The notes under the pieces are model-generated. The model did not search any database and was not told the origin of the DNA. It saw only the letters and a list, made by a program, of their open reading frames with translations. The position numbers were made by a program, and so were the translations under genes. 32,000 nucleotides of DNA from Candidatus Saccharimonadota bacterium (GTDB lineage Archaea > Micrarchaeota > Micrarchaeia > Micrarchaeales > Micrarchaeaceae), in NCBI GenBank assembly GCA_963705375.1, contig OY970071.1, positions 240,001 to 272,000 of the forward strand, given 5' to 3'. Position 1 is the stretch's first letter; each line of letters starts with the position of its first letter. This document shows positions 2,578-31,403 of this stretch, piece after piece.

Positions 2578-2865
2578 CTGCAAGCCAGCATGAAGACTTT
2601 CAGGGGCACGCTTTTGAATTCCTCCTCTCTTGCGATTTTAATCCAGACCATACCGCCATCTCAAACTGCTATGAATCCGAAAGGCTAAAACTCTTGTGAA
2701 AATATGCAAAAGAAGACGAAACCCTGAGAGGATGTGGTTGCGATGCTCCTGGATGCGTAGCGCACATGGCGAGAGTGGCGCGATGATGAGGGACTTGCAC
2801 GCGCTGCCGAGTGCATTATTGCAGGATTAAATACTTAACCAGGCCAGAGGTTCCTGGTGTTAGTG

Positions 2866-3357
2866 ATGCGGGCAAGCGGCGGAGCTTCGGCAAGTGCTCC
2901 TGAACGGTTCAGGCTCATCGCAGGCGTGTACCTTCTGCTCATGAAACAGAACAAGATCCTTCTTCTGAGGAGATTCAACACAGGGTATGAGGACGGCAAA
3001 TACACCACGATAGCAGGCCACATGGACGGCAGAGAGTCTGTCGTCGAAGCCGCGGCGCGCGAGGCGATGGAAGAGGCAGGCATATCGATAAATCCGGATG
3101 ACCTGGAAGTCGTGCACGTGATGCACAGGCGCCACAATCCTGACAGCAAACATTACCAGGAATTCATACTGTTCTTCCTTACAGCAAAAAAGTGGAAGGG
3201 CGAACCGACGCTTGTGGAGAAGGACAAGAGCGACGATATCGGATGGTTCGACATGGAAAATCTGCCGGATAACATCGTCCCGCATGTAAAAGAGGTCATA
3301 CTTAACTCGAGGAAAGGCATTACCTTCTCAGAGTTCGTGGATCCTTATCCTTATTGA
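2866..3357 (+). CDS. NUDIX hydrolase
   Basis: Canonical Nudix box GHMDGRESVVEAAAREAMEEAGI (GX5EX7REUXEEXGU). ATG at 2866 is preferred over the GTG at 2857. Confidence 0.85.
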   Translation: MRASGGASASAPERFRLIAGVYLLLMKQNKILLLRRFNTGYEDGKYTTIAGHMDGRESVVEAAAREAMEEAGISINPDDLEVVHVMHRRHNPDSKHYQEFILFFLTAKKWKGEPTLVEKDKSDDIGWFDMENLPDNIVPHVKEVILNSRKGITFSEFVDPYPY

Positions 3358-4329: not shown

Positions 4330-4956
4330 TCACGTCGATACGTCCGGCAGGGCGTTAAGGTTCACTATGTCGATCTTTATCCCTGCAGAACCAAGCACTT
4401 TTGCAAGTGCATCCATCGGCAGGCTGAACCGCTCCATTCCGTAGATATAACTAGACATGGGCGTAAAGAGGGTGGCCGAGACCCTGTCCTGTGGGTTGTA
4501 GCATCCGGCCCACTCTGTCACGGGCCTGGTTGTGATATAGGACTCTATCTCTGCAGCTGTAAGTTTTTTGCATCTGATAAAAGTGGTCCTGGTTGTGGTT
4601 GTTTCTTCTCCGTTTCTCAAGTCTATCGTGCACATCCCAGTGACCATCTTTATTCTTTTCGTGGACTCCATCCTTAGCATGAGTCGTGCATCATCCAAAT
4701 CTTTGGGTTTTTGCAATTCAGTCCCATCAAGTATTCCGAATGTATCTGCTGCGATCACTATTGCTTCGCCTTTGCACATTGACGCTACTGTGCGTGCTTT
4801 CAGCCGTGCGATCTCCTCTGCCTTCTTTACAGAATCTGATGCATCGACCGACCTTTCGTCCACATTGCTCGGCACCACCTCGAACTGCACGCCTAGTGAT
4901 CGAAGTATGTCTCTGCGGTTCTGCGACCCTGATGCCAGTATTATTTTGGTCGTCAT
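4330..4956 (-). CDS. maf: Maf-family nucleoside triphosphate pyrophosphatase
   Basis: N-terminus IILASGSQNRRDILRSLGVQFEVVPSNVDE and overall length are typical of Maf/YhdE. The start lies 1 nt after the stop of the upstream radical SAM gene. Confidence 0.9.
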   Translation of the reverse strand: MTTKIILASGSQNRRDILRSLGVQFEVVPSNVDERSVDASDSVKKAEEIARLKARTVASMCKGEAIVIAADTFGILDGTELQKPKDLDDARLMLRMESTKRIKMVTGMCTIDLRNGEETTTTRTTFIRCKKLTAAEIESYITTRPVTEWAGCYNPQDRVSATLFTPMSSYIYGMERFSLPMDALAKVLGSAGIKIDIVNLNALPDVST

Positions 4957-8484: not shown

Positions 8485-9507
8485 ATGCCATCAGCAGAAA
8501 AAACAGCAATATATAGAACAGAAGCGACTGTGTCGAGTGTAGATGAGCTCACCAGCTTGCCGCTGAGCGTGATTAAAGCTACGATCAAGGAAGATGAAGA
8601 CACCATGCATGACGAGAGAGTATTCGTAAGGCACATGAACGACTACTGCAGATTCGAAGAGGATACCAAAGTAGGTGGATTTGTTGAGGATTCGGCCATC
8701 GTAGGGGATAGGGCATATATCGGCGCAGACTGCCTGGTATTAAATATGGCCCAAGTACGAGACTACGCCAGAATAAGAGGAGGCACTTGGATCTACGAAA
8801 ATGCGATCTTATACGACAATGCCCAGGCCTATTACGGTTCTATGGTTTTCGGGAACTCTTTTATATACGAAAATGCGCTTGTGGCTAGAGCTTGGGTCGC
8901 CGGACAGACCAAACTTCATGGCAACGTCAGAATCTGCGGCATTGCAGTCCTTGGAGACCTGGACATGAGCATAGATTATGAATTCACAGATGAAAAGCAG
9001 ATATCTAGATACGTAATCCGAACTGAAAAACTCAGAAAAGAGCTTGACCATATAGGCAAGGGCAGCATTAAAAAATGGAAAGAAGAGTGCGAACTCGCCG
9101 TGAAACAACATGAGGAAAAAAGGCTCGAACTCCTCAGGGAACAAGATGAGCAGCCTCAGTTAGCAGCATACACTACAGACAAAGTTAGCGCTAAGCTTGA
9201 ATTCTTATGCAGCAAGTTGCCAATGCAAAAAGCCGAGATTTTGAACGAGCCAAGGATCGTGGGTTATTCTTTAAAAAGAATGTCCGATAGGATAGAGTTC
9301 TTGGAACTGCTCGGAGAGCCCCTACCTGCAACTTTGGATAGCCTTCGTGCAATGTTATCCCCTTCAGATAAAAAGTTCCTAGGGCAATACGAAGCCACAG
9401 AACGTGAAACATCTTTGACGGACCTATTACGCGTCGAGGTGAAGGACCTTTCTGTTGAAAAGGCACTTGACCTACTTAAAAGAGCAAGCGCGGAAAAGAC
9501 AGAGTAG
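8485..9507 (+). CDS. Hypothetical protein: N-terminal left-handed beta-helix repeats, coiled-coil segment, C-terminal mTERF-like helical repeats
   Basis: Five consecutive 18-residue turns (VEDSAIVGDRAYIGADCL / VLNMAQVRDYARIRGGTW / IYENAILYDNAQAYYGSM / VFGNSFIYENALVARAWV / AGQTKLHGNVRICGIAVL). The C-terminus AKLEFLCSKLPMQKAEILNEPRIVGYSLKRMSDRIEFLELLGEP resembles mTERF motifs. Confidence 0.6.
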   Translation: MPSAEKTAIYRTEATVSSVDELTSLPLSVIKATIKEDEDTMHDERVFVRHMNDYCRFEEDTKVGGFVEDSAIVGDRAYIGADCLVLNMAQVRDYARIRGGTWIYENAILYDNAQAYYGSMVFGNSFIYENALVARAWVAGQTKLHGNVRICGIAVLGDLDMSIDYEFTDEKQISRYVIRTEKLRKELDHIGKGSIKKWKEECELAVKQHEEKRLELLREQDEQPQLAAYTTDKVSAKLEFLCSKLPMQKAEILNEPRIVGYSLKRMSDRIEFLELLGEPLPATLDSLRAMLSPSDKKFLGQYEATERETSLTDLLRVEVKDLSVEKALDLLKRASAEKTE

Positions 9508-9794: not shown

Positions 9795-10073
9795 ATGTTT
9801 AAAAAAGATAAAGAAGACAAACCCGATGAGCCAACTGAGCTAGCTACGGCGCTTGGCATGAGAAAGGAAAGCGAAATGGAAGATAACGACGCCATGTCAG
9901 AAGCCGCACACGAGTTATGCATCGCATCTAATGAACTTGCACAGACAATCGAACTGGATAGACACATCCCTGAAGGAGACAAAAAGAAAAAAAGATTGAT
10001 GAAGAATGATGTAGCGGAGTCCTTACAAAACCACAAAACTCAGCAAACAAACTGTAGAAAAACTAACCTATAA
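9795..10073 (+). CDS. Hypothetical small acidic/lysine-rich protein; start uncertain
   Basis: The tracked ORF starts at 9645, but its first 50 codons overlap the repeated upstream module and a TATA box (aaataaatattt, about 9749-9762). ATG 9795 fits a leaderless transcript. Confidence 0.35.
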   Translation: MFKKDKEDKPDEPTELATALGMRKESEMEDNDAMSEAAHELCIASNELAQTIELDRHIPEGDKKKKRLMKNDVAESLQNHKTQQTNCRKTNL

Positions 10074-10085
10074 GTATCTGGATAA

Positions 10086-10634
10086 ATGAAGATGACAACA
10101 CGTGATATGATGCCGGAAAATAGAACGATTGGAAATGGATCATCGTTTAAGGAAGTAAATTGCAACTTCGACGATGTGGCTGTATTCGTGGCCGAAACAG
10201 AGTCGAATTATGACGATTCTATGAGCCTTTTGAAGCAGAACGGCCTGGAACCGCTGACGCATGAGTTAGCACTAGCGCTCGCATCCAGATACTCTGAGCT
10301 TGAGGATCCATTGAAAGGCAAAGAGTTCTATTTGGCCGAAAGACGTTTCAATGAATCCGGATGCCATACTTTTGATGATGGAGGCCAAATTAGTCCAGAT
10401 AAAGTAGGTAAGTTTTTTGGTGCGAACGCAGATATGGAGGAAAAGGTCTGGTGTGAGGGAGGAAAGAATCCATTGAGGTTGAGCGTGCTTACGGACGACG
10501 ACGCCAGTTTACAAAATGCGCGTTTCTCACTCTCTGCGAACTTAGCGCCTCTGGACCGTGTGTCTGTAGTGGTCGGATTTAAAATCTATGAAGAGGATGC
10601 GTCAGATATTGAGGACATGTTAAGAACAACATAA
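10086..10634 (+). CDS. Hypothetical protein
   Basis: 182-aa ORF. The TATA-like ctataagtatctgg at 10069-10082 suggests the true start may be Met at 10107/10110. Confidence 0.5.
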   Translation: MKMTTRDMMPENRTIGNGSSFKEVNCNFDDVAVFVAETESNYDDSMSLLKQNGLEPLTHELALALASRYSELEDPLKGKEFYLAERRFNESGCHTFDDGGQISPDKVGKFFGANADMEEKVWCEGGKNPLRLSVLTDDDASLQNARFSLSANLAPLDRVSVVVGFKIYEEDASDIEDMLRTT

Positions 10635-11452: not shown

Positions 11453-11920
11453 TCATACGCTGAAGTACTCCTTGAATTTCTGGGTCGTCTCTATACGCTT
11501 TGTCCTGCCCTTCCTTTGTGCGGTTATGAACTCCTTCTCGGTGAGCTCCTTTATGTGATCGTAAGTTGCGCTGCCGAACGCCTTCACAATGCTGTTCTGC
11601 ATTATCGGCTCGTTCCTGCCTATGTATGCGAGTATGCGCAGTGCCGACTTTGATATCTCAGGAGCGCCTGCAAGCTCGCTCACCTTGCCTGCGTAAGCTG
11701 CCTTGACTGCCAGCGCATACTTGCCGCTGACGTTAACCATCGTAAGGGCGCTAGCGCCGCTCTCGTATTCTTTTATCAGTTCGTCCATCAGCTTCTTGAC
11801 ATAGCCCATTGATGCGACGCCCATCACCTTTGCGATCTCGTCCAGGCTCATCGCCCTTCCCGATACGAAAAGCGCCGCTTCGGCAAGCCTCATGTGCTCC
11901 GACTCTTTCTGATCAGGCAT
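11453..11920 (-). CDS. scpB: Segregation and condensation protein B
   Basis: AEAALFVSGRAMSLDEIAKV and SKSALRILAYIGRNEPIMQNSIVKAFG match the two winged-helix signatures of ScpB. Overlaps scpA by 8 nt. Confidence 0.85.
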   Translation of the reverse strand: MPDQKESEHMRLAEAALFVSGRAMSLDEIAKVMGVASMGYVKKLMDELIKEYESGASALTMVNVSGKYALAVKAAYAGKVSELAGAPEISKSALRILAYIGRNEPIMQNSIVKAFGSATYDHIKELTEKEFITAQRKGRTKRIETTQKFKEYFSV

Positions 11921-12629
11921 TCTCTCCCTCTGTAAGTTTTATGAATATATCGTCAAAGAAAATCTCCTGCATCACAGCGACAGTCCGCCTGTGAGCAAGG
12001 AAGAGCATCGGCACGAACAGATCTATCACAACCGACGTGATTGAGTCGTACCTTTTCGATATCTGCGAGAAGCTCACCATGCCTTCCTTGTCCGCGTTGC
12101 TCTTTATCAGCATGTATGCAGCGGATATCTTTTCATCTATATCGTCTTTTACAACTGGAAACGTCAAAGGCATTGTTCGCTCGCTCACTACGTGTGCCCT
12201 CTTCTCGGTTATCTTCATCGCGTCGTTCAGCGCGTCCATCAGTTCTTGAAGCGTCACTTTCCGTCCAGGCTGGAGCCTGTTTCTTGGCACAAGCGCCTCG
12301 ACTTCCGGAATGATGCGGTCCATATGCACCACGTCATCAACGATCTCTTGCGGCACTTCGAATACGCTGAGGCTTTCGCTTTTCATGCGCAGCAGTATAG
12401 AAGCGGCAAGCATTATGTTCGCGGGCACGTGAAGGTCTAGAACGCGCATCTGCTTGACCACGGATATGTAGCCGTCAACAATCTTTGCGAGGTCTATCGC
12501 CCACGGGTCTATTCTCTCCTTTTCTACAAGCTCCATCAGCAGCTCACGCCATGTCGCGTTCTTCACAAGTTCCTCTAGGCTGAACTCTGCGAGTGTCTTC
12601 TGTTCTGTAGTAGTCTGGATTGCTGCCAC
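11913..12629 (-). CDS. scpA: Segregation and condensation protein A (kleisin)
   Basis: ERIDPWAIDLAKIVDGY...ANIMLAASILLRMKS is the typical ScpA N-terminal motif. Sits in an operon with scpB. Confidence 0.85.
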   Translation of the reverse strand: MAAIQTTTEQKTLAEFSLEELVKNATWRELLMELVEKERIDPWAIDLAKIVDGYISVVKQMRVLDLHVPANIMLAASILLRMKSESLSVFEVPQEIVDDVVHMDRIIPEVEALVPRNRLQPGRKVTLQELMDALNDAMKITEKRAHVVSERTMPLTFPVVKDDIDEKISAAYMLIKSNADKEGMVSFSQISKRYDSITSVVIDLFVPMLFLAHRRTVAVMQEIFFDDIFIKLTEGENA

Positions 12630-12880
12630 TTAGATACCTGGTCGGATATCAAGGAGATTTACGACAAGCGCATATAAATAGCTTGTGTGGATGAAGGACG
12701 CCCGTCTGTTTCTCAGGCACTTTTGCATGTGGCATGTGCAGCAATAGCGGTGCCGTTCGGTATATCGTTATCGGCCAGCAGGCAGTTGCGCTTGCACAGG
12801 CATTGCGTGCCGAAGTCTGGAAGTCTGCTTTCCTGTATCGCGTCATAGTCTACGCGCAATATCCTCAACAAATAAAAAAC

Positions 12881-12893
12881 TATATATATCTGG
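12881..12893 (+). promoter_or_regulatory. Putative TATA box (tatatatatctgg) for the CDS at 12926
   Basis: A/T-rich box preceded by an A-rich BRE-like aaataaaaaac. Same TATATCTG core as the boxes at 406 and 6583. Confidence 0.4.
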
Positions 12894-12925
12894 AGGCCAG
12901 ACGCCTATCCTGCGTGCAATGCATA

Positions 12926-13486
12926 ATGCACGCAATAGTGATACCGATGAAAACAAAAGATATTAAGCAGGGCGAAAGAACTGAGCAACTTGACATAAAC
13001 AACATTACCGGGTCAATTGAGCAGTTATTTGGCATGATTCGCAAGGGTCCTGAGAAACTTGAAGAAGTGAAGACGGGTATTCTAAGCGAGTTTGCCGAGG
13101 ACGGCGATACGACACAAGAAGACATACTGGCAGCATCAAAGATTATCGATGCGGCTAACGCCGCAATTGCTGTTTTTTCTAAAAGGGGAAGCGCACAAGA
13201 AGCATATGATGCACTCATAGGCAAACTTGGCAGTCCTTTGGAAGAATCTGAACCTGCCGAGGGACAACGCTATGTGAGTTATGCGGAGCAAATCGGTTTC
13301 GCAGCCGGAATTGCGCTAGCGTTTTTCGAGCCGCGCAAAAGCAACAGTGCAGACACCGACATCGAAATGAGCGCACTGAGAAGGGCATTTGTGGACTACT
13401 GTATCGAAGAGACGCCTAGGCGATTCAGCGGCATGACGGTGGATCCCGAAGCTATTGTCGAAGAGCACCGCAATTCTCCAGATTAA
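12926..13486 (+). CDS. Hypothetical protein
   Basis: The tracked ORF begins at 12734 but runs through the promoter. ATG 12926 (or 12947) is the first start downstream of the TATA box. Confidence 0.5.
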   Translation: MHAIVIPMKTKDIKQGERTEQLDINNITGSIEQLFGMIRKGPEKLEEVKTGILSEFAEDGDTTQEDILAASKIIDAANAAIAVFSKRGSAQEAYDALIGKLGSPLEESEPAEGQRYVSYAEQIGFAAGIALAFFEPRKSNSADTDIEMSALRRAFVDYCIEETPRRFSGMTVDPEAIVEEHRNSPD

Positions 13487-13530
13487 TTGCAGCATTTGCC
13501 TGTCCGGAATCCTGCATCATCTGTGATAAA

Positions 13531-13887
13531 ATGCCCAAGCATCCACACCATAAAGAAACTAGGGTCAACAATGGCCCGGAGGATGGCATCGAAAGAACTG
13601 CCAGGAGAGATGATCCAGTAAGCACCAACAAATGTCCGGATTGCAATTACCGTTTGGAGGCACATGCAGAGATCTCTGCGCCTTTGTCACATGCAGTGCC
13701 AAGAGCTGGCGACGTATCCATATGTTTTAGTTGCGGCTGCCTTCTCCGTTTCGACAGCCCCGAAGACATGCATAAACTTACTGGAGAGGAGTTCAGGGCG
13801 CTGCCTATCGATCTTCAAATACACATCCTGTTTATCCGCGATCAGCTGAGAATACTCAATATGCGGCGCCATGAAACAGAGAACTAG
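13531..13887 (+). CDS. Hypothetical zinc-ribbon protein
   Basis: CPDC...x34...CFSCGC four-cysteine arrangement. Lies 45 nt downstream of the preceding CDS. Confidence 0.45.
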   Translation: MPKHPHHKETRVNNGPEDGIERTARRDDPVSTNKCPDCNYRLEAHAEISAPLSHAVPRAGDVSICFSCGCLLRFDSPEDMHKLTGEEFRALPIDLQIHILFIRDQLRILNMRRHETEN

Positions 13888-14008
13888 AATTGATTTAGTC
13901 ACATGACGCGAGTCATTCTTGACAGGCCATGCCAGCGCATGTCTGGCGATAAACACTCTTAACAGCAAAAGCTAAATACCAGAATAATCTGACACGGAGT
14001 GTGGTAAC

Positions 14009-14200
14009 ATGAGCCGAGAAAAGACAAAAATAGAAGAAGGCGATGCGGAGCCGCGGTGTAGAATTCATGTGGACCGCGAACTGGACATGCAACCGGTATC
14101 TACAAACACTGTCAGCTCAGACTCGGCATGGAAGGAGAACCATGACAGGGCAGTGAAGGCCATGGAAATGCTGAGGAACCAGCAGGACAAGCAAGAGTAG
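14009..14200 (+). CDS. Hypothetical small protein
   Basis: 63-aa ORF with TATA-like aagctaaatacc about 30 nt upstream. Confidence 0.3.
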   Translation: MSREKTKIEEGDAEPRCRIHVDRELDMQPVSTNTVSSDSAWKENHDRAVKAMEMLRNQQDKQE

Positions 14201-14357
14201 ATATCCTGTGAGTGCACCTTCCTTTTGGAAGGGCGACATGGCAGTAGGGCGCCTGACAACACACACCGCAAAGAACCATCTCCAAAATATCCAAGCCAGT
14301 CCCACAAAGGCACCCTGCCACCATGGCACTACATGCCTAAACACGTGGTATTCTGCG

Positions 14358-15398
14358 CTAGCGTTTTTCTCCTGCAGGCGCTCTGAGGTATTCTTCTATC
14401 AATTTGACGTCTTTCAGGTCTTTTTCTTTATGAGACGATCTTTTCCATACCAGAACTTCATCAAGCAAAACTACAGGCACACCGTCAATCATCTCTGCCT
14501 CTTCGACTAGCTTCTTTATGTCGGGCCTGTACTGTCCGCACCACCAATCCACATACAGCTCGATGTTGCCTTTGACAAGTATATTGGTGCCGTCTTGCAA
14601 TGCTTTCTCTTTCCATCCGGATTGTGTTTTCAGCCTATCGTACAGTTCCGGCAAGACTACTACGTCTATGTCCCTGCAGTCCCTAATCCCATGTGCAGCC
14701 AGAGGCACGGAGCCGAACAGGGCATACTCGCCCAATGGCAGATTCAGGACTCTTACAATTTCAAGTATCTCGTTAAATTTCATGGGCACTTCAGCAGCCT
14801 CTTCCACGAAACGGCTCCAGTTCCGTATCGTGCATCGCCCGAAACCAGATACTTCCGAAAGCCGGTCTTCTGTCTTGTGCTCTTCGGCACACGTTGCGGC
14901 GATGTAGACCGCTGCGGCTGCCGCGACATTCGGCTTCCCAAGAAGGCGCGTGCGCATCGGCTTTAGCCGCATCGCATTTGCAAGAAGCTGCATCGCGGGC
15001 TTGGTGACCTCATCTCCGAGCCCTAACGCGTTCGCATAACTAGCTACATAGTGCGCTTGCAGCACTTCCGAACAAGTATCGAATATCTCGCTTTTAGCAA
15101 CGCCTGATGCGCTTTCCAGCTCATTGAGTATCCTTAGTCTTTCGGCCGGTTCCATCTCTCCACACGAAGCAAAAAGCACTGCCTGTATAATCAACTCTGC
15201 ATTCTTTCCTTCGATTAATCCGAGCTCCACGCACTCCCTATACGTGCTTTCTGCATTCTTTATGACGTCTTCAGAAAGTTCAAGCGCTCTTGACATTGCA
15301 CTTATACGCTCAGACGGATTTGCCTGCTCTGTCCTAAGTATGTCCTTTGCTATCCGTCCTTTTGTTGCAGTTTCCCTATTCTTCTCTGCGCGGGGCAC
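14358..15398 (-). CDS. TFB/TFIIB-like cyclin-core protein fused to a nucleotidyltransferase (Pol-beta superfamily) domain
   Basis: Two cyclin-type repeats: IKNAESTYRECVELGLIEGKNAELIIQAVLFASC and GKPNVAAAAAVYIAATCAEEHKTEDRLSEVSGFGRCTIRNWSRFVEE (compare TFB GK.P..AAAAIYIA...TQ.EVA...GVTEVTIRNRYKEL). No N-terminal CxxC Zn ribbon. C-terminal FGSVPLAAHGIRDCRDIDVVV is the G-S...DxD NTase motif. GTG start with a TATA box about 30 nt upstream. Confidence 0.75.
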   Translation of the reverse strand: MPRAEKNRETATKGRIAKDILRTEQANPSERISAMSRALELSEDVIKNAESTYRECVELGLIEGKNAELIIQAVLFASCGEMEPAERLRILNELESASGVAKSEIFDTCSEVLQAHYVASYANALGLGDEVTKPAMQLLANAMRLKPMRTRLLGKPNVAAAAAVYIAATCAEEHKTEDRLSEVSGFGRCTIRNWSRFVEEAAEVPMKFNEILEIVRVLNLPLGEYALFGSVPLAAHGIRDCRDIDVVVLPELYDRLKTQSGWKEKALQDGTNILVKGNIELYVDWWCGQYRPDIKKLVEEAEMIDGVPVVLLDEVLVWKRSSHKEKDLKDVKLIEEYLRAPAGEKR

Positions 15399-15471
15399 CT
15401 TATCACAAGTACGGCTCGGCCTTCCTCATATTTATTTGTGCCGTTTGGTCGTTGCAGAACAGGACAATACT

Positions 15472-16389
15472 TCAGTACATCTGCTCGAGACGCTTTATCC
15501 TGTCGTCTATCGGCGGGTGTGTCGAGAAGAGACCGGAGAAGCCGCCCTTGAGAGGATTCGAGAAGTACAGACTCGAGGTTATGTCGTTCGCATGCATGAC
15601 AGACTGCGACTGCGGATTGCTTGTGTAGTCGCGTATGTTCTTCAGCGCACCTGCAAGAGCGTGCGGATCCCTTATCAGCCGTGCCCCGTTCGCGTCCGCC
15701 ATATACTCTCTTCTTCTTGAGATGGCGAGCCTGAGAAGCAGCGCGAATAGCGGAGCCAAGATGCCTATGAGCAGCGCAATCACTATGAAGATGTCGCCAT
15801 TGTCCCTTCGTCCATTTCCACCTCCAGCCCTGAATCCTCCGAACAGCACGCTGTTCCTTATCAGGCCTGCGATCAGACCTATCGCACCCGCGAACGCTAC
15901 CGCTACAAGCATGTACAGTATGTCGTTGTCTGCAACATGGGACAGCTCATGCGCGAGCACGCCCTGAAGCTCACGCTTGTCCATCATTGAGAGAAGGCCT
16001 GTTGTCACAGCGACATACGCATGGTTCCGGTCCCTTCCGGTCGCGAAAGCATTCGGGTTCGGATCGTTTATTATGTAAACTCCAGGAGCCTTCACCTGTA
16101 TCGCGCTTGAAAGCCCTTCAACAACATCATACAGATAGTGGTACTGTTTGGGATCTGCCTTCTGAGCTCTTGAGATCGCGAGCACCATCTTGCCGCCCAT
16201 GAAATATGCGAACAATGCATACACGACTATAAGCACCGCACCGATGATCATGCCGCTTACTGGGTCAGCACCAATGAAGAGCGAGAAAAGCAGTATGACA
16301 AAGGTAAACAGTGCAAAGAACACCAGGAAGAGCAGCACCGACTTGAGCCTGTTCTTCGCTATTTCATCGAAAAAGCTTGCCATGAGCAT
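15472..16389 (-). CDS. htpX: HtpX-family M48 zinc metalloprotease
   Basis: HELSHV zinc-binding motif, four hydrophobic segments and a typical HtpX C-terminus (FSTHPPIDDRIKRL). Confidence 0.9.
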   Translation of the reverse strand: MLMASFFDEIAKNRLKSVLLFLVFFALFTFVILLFSLFIGADPVSGMIIGAVLIVVYALFAYFMGGKMVLAISRAQKADPKQYHYLYDVVEGLSSAIQVKAPGVYIINDPNPNAFATGRDRNHAYVAVTTGLLSMMDKRELQGVLAHELSHVADNDILYMLVAVAFAGAIGLIAGLIRNSVLFGGFRAGGGNGRRDNGDIFIVIALLIGILAPLFALLLRLAISRRREYMADANGARLIRDPHALAGALKNIRDYTSNPQSQSVMHANDITSSLYFSNPLKGGFSGLFSTHPPIDDRIKRLEQMY

Positions 16390-16432
16390 ATACCCTTTGC
16401 CATTTGCTGTCCTGCCGGTGTTTCCTTAGGGA

Positions 16433-17074
16433 CTACGCGGCACCTTTCTTGCCCTTGCCTTTCTGTGGTGCGCCAGCATCTCCGGACATGTCTCCAAAGT
16501 CAACCTTTACGGGCTGCTTCTCAGCTTCTGAGGCCACCTTGAAGTAGTCGTCAGGCTTGAAGCCAAACATGCTCGCGAAAATGTTGCCGGGGAACTGCTG
16601 CAGCGCGTTGTTGTAATCAAGTACGTAATCGTTGTAAGAGGTCCTGACATAGGATATCTTGTCCTCAGTGCCTTCCAGCTGATCCTGCAGCTCCTTGAAG
16701 TTTGCAGACGCCTTGAGGTCAGGATAGCTCTCAGCCACGGCGAATATCGACTTGAGCGACTTGGTGAGCTGGTCGTTGGCCTTGAGTTTCTCATCGGCAG
16801 TGCCGGTGACTATCGAGGCCCTTAGCTTTGTGACTTCGGTGAGCACGCTCTTCTCGTACTTTGCATAGCCCTTCACAGTCTCTATCAGGTTCGGGATCAG
16901 GTCGTACCTCCTCTTGAGCTGCACGTCTATCTGAGACCATGCGTCCTGCACTCTGTTCCTCTTTGAGACGAGCCCGTTGTAGCTGAGAATGACAATGACA
17001 AGCAGCAGCACTATTATTGCCAGCAATGCCGTTGCGAGGCCTCCGAGATCCAGCAGAACAATTAAGGGCATCAT
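16433..17074 (-). CDS. lemA: LemA family protein
   Basis: N-terminal TM helix followed by YNGLVSKRNRVQDAWSQIDVQLKRRYDLIPNL, the LemA signature. Sits immediately upstream of htpX, the usual pairing. Confidence 0.9.
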   Translation of the reverse strand: MMPLIVLLDLGGLATALLAIIVLLLVIVILSYNGLVSKRNRVQDAWSQIDVQLKRRYDLIPNLIETVKGYAKYEKSVLTEVTKLRASIVTGTADEKLKANDQLTKSLKSIFAVAESYPDLKASANFKELQDQLEGTEDKISYVRTSYNDYVLDYNNALQQFPGNIFASMFGFKPDDYFKVASEAEKQPVKVDFGDMSGDAGAPQKGKGKKGAA

Positions 17075-28228: not shown

Positions 28229-28367
28229 AGTGTGCTAGTTCTGGTGCAGCAAGTTTTAAGTAAGCTACCTTGTAGCACTCTCCGGCACTCATCCACGCAT
28301 TCCAGGTTCGTGCAGTCTAAATACCTTTTCAATCAAATCCCTCTGCAATCATAGTTGCGGTGTGTGT

Positions 28368-28943
28368 ATGATACTCTCGACAAAACTGGTGCTGGCGCTG
28401 AACAAGAGATACAACCTGATAGAGAACCTCTCTGACAGGGAGCAATCGAATGCGGAAGGCGTAGGCATAGACATACGCGTTGGCGAAGTCTACAGGCTCG
28501 AGGGCGATGGCTTTCTTGGCGTGACCGATAGGAAGACGCCGACAGAGACGAAGTTCGCGGACATAAAGGCCGGCGACAAAGAGGTTATACTGGAACCACA
28601 CGATTACGTTCTTGTCAAGACCATGGAGAAGGTGAACATACCTTCAGAGAAAATACCAATAGAGGAAGGAAAAGAGCCGGCACACATAATGCTTGATGTG
28701 CATCCCAGGAGCACGCTCCAACGCAGCGGAATATATCTGATGGCTACGAAGACTGATCCGGGCTATTCCGGAGAACTGGTGTTCGCGCTCGCCAACCTCA
28801 GCAACGGCTCTTTCAGGCTTGAGCTCGGCGCAAGGATCGCGAACATAACATTCGAGCAGGTCGCCGGAGACATAGTGCGATCATATGAAGGGCAGTGGAA
28901 GGGCGGCAGGGTTTCCGCAAATAAAACTGAGAAGCAGAATTGA
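28368..28943 (+). CDS. dcd: dCTP deaminase / dUTPase-superfamily protein
   Basis: MILS... N-terminus, GIDIRVG, HPRSTLQRSGI and TDPGYSGELVFALANLS match the Dcd family. ATG 28368 is preferred over GTG 28362. Confidence 0.8.
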   Translation: MILSTKLVLALNKRYNLIENLSDREQSNAEGVGIDIRVGEVYRLEGDGFLGVTDRKTPTETKFADIKAGDKEVILEPHDYVLVKTMEKVNIPSEKIPIEEGKEPAHIMLDVHPRSTLQRSGIYLMATKTDPGYSGELVFALANLSNGSFRLELGARIANITFEQVAGDIVRSYEGQWKGGRVSANKTEKQN

Positions 28944-30849: not shown

Positions 30850-31302
30850 TCACGCCGCGAGCGTCATCTGACAGGATACGTCTTGCCTCCTGATGTAATT
30901 CTGTACCGTCTTCTCGTCGCGAGGCCCAACACTTCCGTTGCTGTATCCTGCACTCCAGAAGTGACCTTGCAGATACCGCAGCCTATGGTTAGGTATTTCC
31001 TTGAAAACCACATACGACGAATATCCCTTCAGCAGTTGTACTGCAGTTGCAATCGACATTGTATTTGGAATGCCTGTTTCGAGATGTATGTGTGCGTAAT
31101 CATCGCCAAATGACATTTCCTTTATTGAGATCTTGTACCTTTCTGCAACGTTGTAGAGGGCACCACGTATTGCCGCCACGGTTTTCGGGTTCTTGAACAT
31201 CTTGTATCGGTACTTCGTAACGAAGACAAGGTGCTGGAAGTTGTATTGATGACCGACGCTGTCGGCAGATGGTTCTTTATTTGCAGCGGTTCCACTATTC
31301 AT
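30850..31302 (-). CDS. tnpA: IS200/IS605 family Y1 (HUH) transposase TnpA
   Basis: FQHLVFVTKYRYKMF, HUH motif YAHIHLE, and a C-terminal SAGYS...YIRRQ region carrying the catalytic Tyr. ATG 31302 is preferred over the TTG at 31332. Confidence 0.85.
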   Translation of the reverse strand: MNSGTAANKEPSADSVGHQYNFQHLVFVTKYRYKMFKNPKTVAAIRGALYNVAERYKISIKEMSFGDDYAHIHLETGIPNTMSIATAVQLLKGYSSYVVFKEIPNHRLRYLQGHFWSAGYSNGSVGPRDEKTVQNYIRRQDVSCQMTLAA

Positions 31303-31403
31303 GTTATCACGTATCGGCAGTTTGCGGCGCAAATTTTTCCGTGCCGCGGCTGCCTTACGCAGAAATCTACAGGAAAAGTATTTCAGTAACTGTGCAATTC
31401 ATT

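Follow-up and report, generated by a model that had tools for sequence, protein, structure and literature searches.

A TFB core without zinc ribbon joined to a small nucleotidyltransferase in a single open reading frame of a Micrarchaeota-like archaeon

A stretch of 32,000 nucleotides of contig OY970071.1 (assembly GCA_963705375.1), hereafter the window, holds a gene whose product joins a degenerate core of the archaeal transcription factor TFB to a small nucleotidyltransferase (NTase) domain. It is a new architecture, seen only once, that a simple deletion assembled from known folds. Sequence comparison indicates that the fusion is genuine in a Micrarchaeota-like (DPANN) archaeon, an artefact being unlikely, and that it is a derived, lineage-specific event and not a conserved architecture. 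With somewhat better than even confidence, we propose that the NTase is active and that the TFB-derived module, which would not serve in initiation, is instead its partner and either targets or regulates it. These functional claims draw on sequence, locus comparison and predicted structure, and they carry most of the uncertainty.

The fusion gene occupies positions 14358..15398 of the minus strand, an orientation that corrects the earlier note on this DNA, which was made from the sequence alone. The open reading frame (ORF) that the note had placed there is real and reads as one uninterrupted frame of 346 codons, with a GTG start and without internal stop. The public NCBI/ENA model of the protein (P0001) counts 312 residues and begins at M35, while the gene call on a Logan contig gives 346 residues from the GTG at 15398. 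The start at M35 is probably too short and would cut into the first cyclin helix. The GTG is favored because of its promoter spacing and because the ORF aligns from residue 1 onward with its orthologue on a related contig, L007. A TATA-like promoter box read from the sequence, AAATAAATAT (15428..15437, minus strand), ends 29 nt before the GTG, and inspection of the sequence upstream of M35 and M206 revealed no such box. A box of the AAATAT type ending 28-31 nt before the start codon was found for at least nine other genes of the window (starts at 1141, 2008, 6460, 8485, 17074, 17193, 18620, 26042 and 30771, in addition to 15398). The gene htpX, which lies 43 bp behind lemA, has none. This spacing before most genes with their own promoter implies that the source organism would produce mostly leaderless mRNAs. 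Transcription of the gene would be driven by its own TATA box and yield a near-leaderless mRNA starting at the GTG, and the 346-residue model with its own promoter is well supported by these sequence features. The own TATA box and leaderless GTG start proposed earlier are supported in this near-leaderless form, the box spacing being that seen elsewhere in the window.

A perfect direct repeat of 16 nt, TGCGCTAGCGTTTTTC, occurs twice, 1042 bp apart (13312-13327 and 14354-14369), and its second copy includes the stop codon with which the fusion gene ends (14358..14360, minus strand). By our own estimate the chance expectation of such a 16-nt match in 3.3 kb is ~0.001. The repeat may be the boundary of an insertion located downstream of the fusion gene, or else a terminator-like element shared by the two sites.

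The N-terminal half of the protein is related to the core of TFB. The GTG opens a basic tail of 26 residues (15321..15398, minus strand) that has neither cysteine nor zinc ribbon. This tail is shared with the L007 orthologue (KD[IM]LRT) and is modelled by AlphaFold2 as a helix of modest confidence (predicted local distance difference test, pLDDT, 63-74). Residues 27-200 form two TFB/TFIIB cyclin repeats, with a match to Pfam PF00382 in two stretches that is significant (E=4.1e-19, 68.8 bits for a cutoff of 23.6), as the earlier note had expected for this family. Repeat 1 (about residues 27-118; 15045..15320, minus strand) contains the best PF00382 stretch (23-109), is aligned with the structures 1d3u_B and 1tfb, and carries AKSEIFDTCSEVLQ in place of the canonical TFB basic helix. 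Repeat 2 (about residues 119-203; 14790..15044, minus strand) corresponds to the second PF00382 stretch and to the TFB-core alignments, and carries an AAAAAVYIAA motif and the helix-turn-helix CTIRNWSRF. Sequence matches to known structures reach E=1e-10 for the Pyrococcus woesei TFB core (1d3u_B, 1ais_B) and about 5e-6 for human TFIIB cores. In the NCBIfam TFB model NF001658, residues 29-198 align to profile positions 128-302 of 312 with 71.2 bits, far below the curated cutoff of 384. The full-length AlphaFold2 model (alignment of nine rows; pLDDT 83; predicted template modelling score, pTM, 0.53) shows in the TFB half the ten helices expected, and its top Foldseek matches in the PDB are 1d3u_B and the TFIIB chains of pre-initiation complexes.

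What precedes the core in a canonical TFB is missing. No zinc ribbon (CxxC...CxxC) is present in the protein, whose first cysteine is residue 56 and which has no match to PF08271. The B-reader and B-linker are absent as well: just the 26-residue tail stands before the core and the NF001658 alignment starts at profile position 128. In a BLASTP comparison with a canonical, zinc ribbon-bearing TFB (P0005), residues 27-196 correspond to residues 120-291 of P0005, so that nothing in the protein answers to the ~119 residues with which a normal TFB begins. A ribbon hidden upstream or in another frame is impossible because the htpX stop (15472) and the GTG are separated by 73 bp. No frameshift accounts for the missing ribbon, B-reader and B-linker, whose absence is genuine, and the cyclin core devoid of these parts that had been noticed in the letters alone is borne out by the Pfam, NCBIfam, PDB and P0005 alignments. 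Lacking ribbon and B-reader, the TFB-like module is predicted to be unable to recruit RNA polymerase. An ORF on the opposite strand (13531-13887, 118 residues) with a zinc-ribbon-like CPDC...CFSC pattern was considered as a split-off TFB ribbon and rejected, as it matches nothing in Pfam or PHROG and is absent from the relatives.

The C-terminal half (residues 206-346; 14361..14783, minus strand) is a small NTase domain of the Pol-beta fold, identified by family alignment, structure prediction and fold comparison. It has no Pfam match (E<=10) and no sequence match in the PDB, where neither the domain alone nor a profile of 69 family members retrieved anything meaningful; only fold comparison worked. 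The AlphaFold2 model of the domain has a pLDDT of 93 and shows the alpha-beta-alpha-beta-alpha-beta core of this fold. In the PDB, Foldseek gave five matches with E<=0.001, all of the NTase fold, a fold shared by almost every one of the best 50; these are led by ANT(2'')-Ia and MenT1 (E about 1e-4; TM-score, i.e. template modelling score, up to 0.58) and followed by Cid1, PolX and MenT3/TglT. The motifs comprise the hG[GS]-x12-DxD signature, in which 12 residues separate LFGS from D243-I-D245-VVV (the superfamily motif hG[GS]...[DE]h[DE]h allows 9-13), together with another carboxylate as the third and, towards the C-terminus, a K...R.KDxxD block. On the minus strand, G229-S230 are encoded at 14709-14714, D243-I-D245 at 14664-14672, the third acidic residue E280, in beta-strand 279-282, at 14559-14561, and K319...K326-D327..D330 at 14409-14444. 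Seven residues (S230, D245, E280, K319, K326, D327 and D330) are invariant in the 69-member alignment, while G229 and D243 (in >=90% of relatives) and R324 are near-invariant. The minimal NTase motif described earlier is confirmed by the conservation of these residues and by the predicted fold. The proposed hidden Markov model (HMM) support is divided: this protein itself lacks a Pfam match, whereas 24 of the 69 relatives match PF01909 weakly (best 1.9e-5). Of the same 69, 22 match DUF7277, on which a literature search returned nothing relevant, and the HMM of phrog_12854 matches the NTase half at E=5.6e-8.

A profile of four homologues gave 629 matches for this NTase family and an exhaustive search of representative proteins lists hundreds more. 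Most members are free-standing proteins of 130-150 residues annotated as hypothetical, many of them from Patescibacteria. Elsewhere the domain is fused to Maf, NUDIX and inorganic pyrophosphatase, CYTH, PLD, RIO-like kinase, MNT-HEPN and BAAT/DLH hydrolases. In multi-domain database proteins (P0147, P0260, P0241 and P0003/P0004) it interrupts a RIO/Bud32-like kinase, stands between a NUDIX and an inorganic pyrophosphatase domain, precedes an MNT-HEPN pair or follows BAAT/dienelactone-hydrolase domains. The domain is very promiscuous and unstudied. Its partners act mostly on nucleotides, which fits a putatively active enzyme consuming a nucleoside triphosphate and releasing pyrophosphate.

The origin of the fusion can be followed by comparing related loci. 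On the left, the locus is anchored by a conserved LemA-HtpX pair (15472..17074, minus strand; Pfam LemA E=1.8e-60, Peptidase_M48 E=4.3e-34), in which the M48/HtpX gene spans 15472-16389 and the LemA gene 16433-17074. The pair is syntenic in three related contigs, L003, L008 and L007. On the right, the anchor is scpA-scpB (11453..12629, minus strand), recognized by Pfam and by blastn synteny. Three states were observed between the anchors. In L003 (ENA) and L008 (Micrarchaeota bin A14_bin-2569), lemA-htpX is followed after 11 bp by a free NTase of 151-153 residues, 61-64% identical to residues 206-346 of the fusion, then by a few small genes and scpA-scpB, with no TFB-like gene. In L007 (JGI 3300035696), the C-terminus of HtpX is followed by P0128, a ribbon-less TFB paralog of 320-324 residues with three TFIIB repeats that is 45-47% identical to residues 1-203 of the fusion, and then, after 30 bp, by a separate NTase gene of 155 codons (63% identical). 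The scpA upstream sequence begins in L007 just ~35 bp after the NTase gene, positions 1647-1768 at the end of the contig being 89.6% identical to positions 12685-12561 of the window (blastn). The window shows the third state, a single ORF that takes in both TFB paralog and NTase. The three arrangements show by comparison that the htpX-scpA gap is a variable hotspot. A 14-mer, CCTATAAGTATCTG, precedes both the TFB paralog in L007 (93-106) and the ORF 10086-10634 of the window (region 10067-10080); it may be a shared promoter element or a chance occurrence.

Codon-level comparison with L007 places the fusion junction at residues 200-205, EAAEVP (14784..14801, minus strand). Homology with P0128 runs to residue 205 and homology with the NTase starts at M206, which corresponds to M13 of the separate NTase in L007. 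Missing from the window are about 402 nt present in L007, which comprise the third repeat, the stop codon, the 30-bp spacer and the first 12 codons of the NTase. In L003, L008 and L007 alike, the free NTase starts with a shared tail of 12-14 residues not found in the fusion, from which it follows that the separate-gene state is ancestral and the fusion a derived in-frame deletion. The earlier note had named two ordinary separate genes joined by a sequencing error as grounds to abandon its reading. The two halves are indeed separate adjacent genes in L007, but they are joined in the window by an in-frame deletion of ~400 bp and not by an error. Ordering the states by locus comparison, an ancestral lemA-htpX-NTase locus with a Pol-beta-fold NTase of ~150 residues would first have existed. 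Next, in one sub-lineage, a TFB paralog that evolves fast, has three repeats and its own promoter and lacks the ribbon would have come between htpX and the NTase, as in L007. Finally, in the lineage of the window, an in-frame deletion of ~0.4 kb would have yielded the 346-residue protein made of the 26-residue tail, two cyclin repeats and the NTase. Scans of viral contigs for both halves returned nothing, which leaves a viral origin of the insertion unsupported, and base composition across the locus showed no signal of foreign DNA.

The favored functional reading builds on this succession. The NTase half would be catalytically competent and transfer a nucleotide to an acceptor, because every residue invariant in the family is kept. 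By fold analogy with MenT and ANT(2''), an RNA or tRNA 3' end or a small molecule could serve as acceptor. That the family handles nucleotides is suggested by the fusion of its relatives to Maf, NUDIX and inorganic pyrophosphatase, CYTH and MNT-HEPN. The TFB half, without the parts that recruit the polymerase and with the basic surface for DNA and TBP lost, would not act as an initiation factor. It would instead be a dedicated partner module of the NTase, a view that follows from the adjacency of the two genes in L007 and their subsequent covalent fusion in the window; the partnership would predate the deletion. That both halves are accessory and evolve fast is likewise counted in its favor. 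Several observations weigh against this proposal. The fusion is found in one genome and the TFB paralog on one other contig, so that selection for the fusion cannot be shown. The deleted third repeat is the one that scores best against the TFIIB model, and its loss could equally signal decay. The full-length AlphaFold2 model shows no confident packing between the domains (pTM 0.53). The NTases of L003 and L008 run without a TFB-like partner, hence the partnership is not obligatory. Lastly, M206 aligns with the natural start region of the free members and the NTase might be made alone.

A neutral or decaying by-product is the first alternative to be considered: an accidental in-frame deletion in a hypervariable interval would have produced a protein without function of its own, one or both halves of which are being lost. 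This is unlikely, although several features are in line with it. The architecture is a singleton and the htpX-scpA interval differs in every relative, with 1.7 kb taken up here by orphan ORFs. Identity among the relatives is 77-85% for flanking proteins, about 62% for the NTase and 47% for the TFB-like part, which makes the latter the fastest-evolving gene of the neighbourhood; the basic surface of this part is gone and the deletion removed its most canonical repeat. The NTase and the TFB-like part are both accessory genes that evolve fast in a variable interval. Nevertheless, the 346-codon ORF is intact with its promoter and start preserved, all NTase invariants are kept, and long blocks conserved with P0128 across the TFB part argue for purifying selection until recently at least. 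A dN/dS comparison between the window and L007 was considered and rejected, synonymous sites being saturated at 47-62% amino-acid identity.

A more ambitious version, in which ribbon-less TFB paralog and small NTase constitute a new two-part DPANN system that happens to be a single chain here, is given a clearly lower probability than an even chance would be and is regarded as rather improbable. The TFB-derived module could then bring the NTase to the transcription machinery, i.e. to TBP, TFB, promoter DNA or nascent 5' or 3' RNA ends. Alternatively, the TFB module would be the partner that the enzyme nucleotidylylates or that regulates it. In both versions, initiation would be linked to nucleotide chemistry.

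Still less probable is a role of the protein as TFB decoy or anti-initiation factor, in which the ribbon-less core would occupy TBP-BRE/TATA complexes (BRE, B recognition element) and repress transcription, the NTase acting locally or being a passenger. N-terminally truncated TFBs can still form TBP-TFB-DNA complexes but cannot recruit the polymerase, which speaks for such a decoy. Both cyclin repeats are present, and the helix-turn-helix arginines R286 and R290 of human TFIIB are kept as R192 and R196, while V283 is replaced by C189 and RTQ(K/R)E by KTEDR. The orthologue P0128 has a glutamine at the position equivalent to R286, which counts against a decoy. In the HMMER alignment, five conserved basic residues of repeat 1 (R169, K189, R193, K196 and K200 in human TFIIB) are replaced by G80, S103, D107, S110 and Q114. 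The contact roles of all these residues are presumably those given in the TFIIB literature. For the G153/R154 loop, contact with the downstream element BREd is documented in human TFIIB (PMC4529316); its equivalent, the G-K loop G64-K65, is kept. The net charge of residues 27-203 is -8 (pI 5.0), compared with +7 for P0005, +11 for P. woesei TFB and +9 for human TFIIB (pI 9.4-9.8). The inter-repeat linker is ~12 residues shorter than in canonical TFBs and the NCBIfam score is far below its cutoff, as given above. The TFB-like module appears degenerate and, given the five lost basic residues and the acidic core, its binding to TBP and DNA is doubtful. The statement of the earlier note that the protein could bind TBP/DNA is accordingly weakened, and its question about the residues contacting TBP and BRE receives a mixed answer: R192, R196 and G64-K65 are retained and the basic residues of repeat 1 are not.

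The chances are poorer yet for a toxin-antitoxin-like system, in which the NTase would be a toxin of the MenT/AbiEii type and the TFB-derived helix-turn-helix protein its antitoxin or autoregulator, the fusion being a self-neutralised chain. The Foldseek matches to MenT1 and MenT3 suggest such a role, as does the resemblance of K319 and KDxxD to the C-terminal K and D motifs of DUF1814 (PMC7450476). The order of partner and NTase in L007, with a gap of 30 bp, recalls antitoxin-toxin operons, and both genes evolve fast in a variable spot. Nevertheless, no AbiEii/DUF1814 model of Pfam and no PADLOC model is matched, most family members stand alone, and the fusion partners found elsewhere are nucleotide hydrolases and not antitoxins. 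In the closest relatives, L003 and L008, the NTase lies alone 11 bp after htpX with no antitoxin candidate as neighbour, an upstream TFB-like gene being present in L007 only. PADLOC detected no defence system for either half; a weak mad1 match of P0128 that covers only 20 residues was ignored.

An assembly or sequencing artefact joining two separate genes is extremely improbable and already largely refuted, even though the halves are separate genes in L007 and the sequencing run ERR11594402, from which contigs L005 and L006 both derive, also holds a second, related organism. Over 4371 bp that include the entire gene, L006 does not differ from the window (100% identity), so that two different assemblies (the 1.2 Mb NCBI contig and the per-run Logan contig) reproduce the fusion base for base across 4.4 kb. 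What sets the window apart from L007 is the absence of ~400 bp and not a frameshift or lost stop, no repeat able to mislead an assembler was found at the junction, and the NTase part is just 64% identical to that of the co-occurring organism, which excludes a chimera of the two.

Protein searches covered 5.8 billion proteins by word index and 1.84 billion representatives exhaustively. Among all these, the TFB-NTase fusion was found in P0001/P0006 alone, which belong to the same organism, and P0128 was the single further member of the ribbon-less TFB paralogs. The earlier remark that no TFB-NTase fusion was described agrees with this, no second organism having been found in either search. The full protein retrieved no relative among GTDB representative genomes, in which the NTase alignment recovered two Micrarchaeota loci alone, both with a free NTase. 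A metagenome scan returned nothing for the TFB-part alignment and only distant homologues (33-38% identity) for the NTase alignment. Literature searches on TFB in Micrarchaeota and on natural ribbon-less TFB homologues returned nothing relevant.

The 1.7 kb that separate scpA-scpB from the fusion gene (12630-14357) are specific to the genome of the window. They hold three orphan ORFs (12734-13486, 13531-13887 and 14009-14200) with no Pfam or PHROG match and no counterpart in L003, L007 or L008. Other genes of the window, such as Trm5/TYW2, ScpAB and NIF3, are archaeal in look. The ORF 8485-9507 (340 residues) matches the mTERF domain (PF02536, E=8e-7), a family best known from eukaryote organelles and unusual in an archaeon. 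The ORF 2008-2577 (189 residues) matches the protein N-terminal asparagine amidohydrolase family (PF14736, E=6e-7), whose members are N-degron enzymes of eukaryote type. The window also contains NUDIX, Maf and dCTP deaminase-like genes (2857-3357, 4330-4956 and 28362-28943); that NUDIX and Maf are also fusion partners of the NTase family elsewhere is probably a coincidence. As for mobile elements, the ORF 30850-31332 encodes a transposase of the IS200/Y1 type (PF01797, E=4e-26) and L003 carries an rve-type integrase near its scpB.

If functional, the fusion would be a "Rosetta stone" tying together two uncharacterised families, the rare ribbon-less acidic paralogs of the TFB core and the very large family of ~135-residue NTases of Candidate Phyla Radiation (CPR) bacteria, DPANN archaea and jumbo phages. 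It would offer a handle for assigning a function to both and an instance of a general transcription factor fold reused as enzyme partner. If it is a mere deletion scar, it documents the birth of a multidomain protein in a reduced genome, with the three states kept in relatives.

Several known systems resemble one or the other half. On the NTase side, the best Foldseek match in the PDB is ANT(2'')-Ia (5CFU, 4XJE; E=1.6e-4), likewise a small single-domain NTase, with which the identity is 18% and the TM-score 0.43-0.46; there is no match to PF10706 and no sign of an antibiotic substrate. The tRNA nucleotidyltransferase toxins MenT1 and MenT3 (DUF1814) and AbiEii share with the domain of the window the Pol-beta fold, the GS...DxD motif and C-terminal helices with conserved K and D, the TM-score with MenT1 being 0.56-0.58. 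They differ from it in that similarity is lacking at the HMM level, the domain of the window is much smaller (~135 residues) and its family usually has no paired antitoxin. The DUF1814 NTases have four motifs, with K and D motifs in the C-terminal part (PMC7450476). The domain of the window has motifs I and II, and K319 and K326-D327-x-x-D330 resemble III and IV but are spaced differently. Closer in fold and size (TM-score about 0.7) are proteins of ~140 residues from the jumbo phages Ralstonia RP12, Erwinia PhiEaH1 and Pseudomonas 201phi2-1, to which the HMM match with phrog_12854 can be added; these proteins in contrast are viral and free-standing, and are uncharacterised too.

On the TFB side, the core of archaeal TFB and eukaryotic TFIIB (PF00382; 1AIS, 1D3U) is matched significantly in both sequence and fold. 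The protein of the window differs from it by the absence of ribbon, B-reader and B-linker, by its acidity, by its shorter linker and by the added C-terminal enzyme domain. Sulfolobus TFB3 has undergone the converse truncation, keeping the N-terminal ribbon region without most of the core, whereas the window protein retains the core alone and adds an enzyme fusion. Specialised TFB paralogs, TFB3 among them (PMC6101594, PMC6101591), are natural variants that have likewise lost canonical parts and serve as accessory and not general factors. The nearest counterpart is P0128 itself, an orthologue of the N-terminal half in the same slot after htpX with an NTase gene directly next to it. Unlike the fusion, P0128 retains TFIIB repeat 3 and ends at a stop codon of its own, and the NTase is encoded separately, 30 bp downstream.

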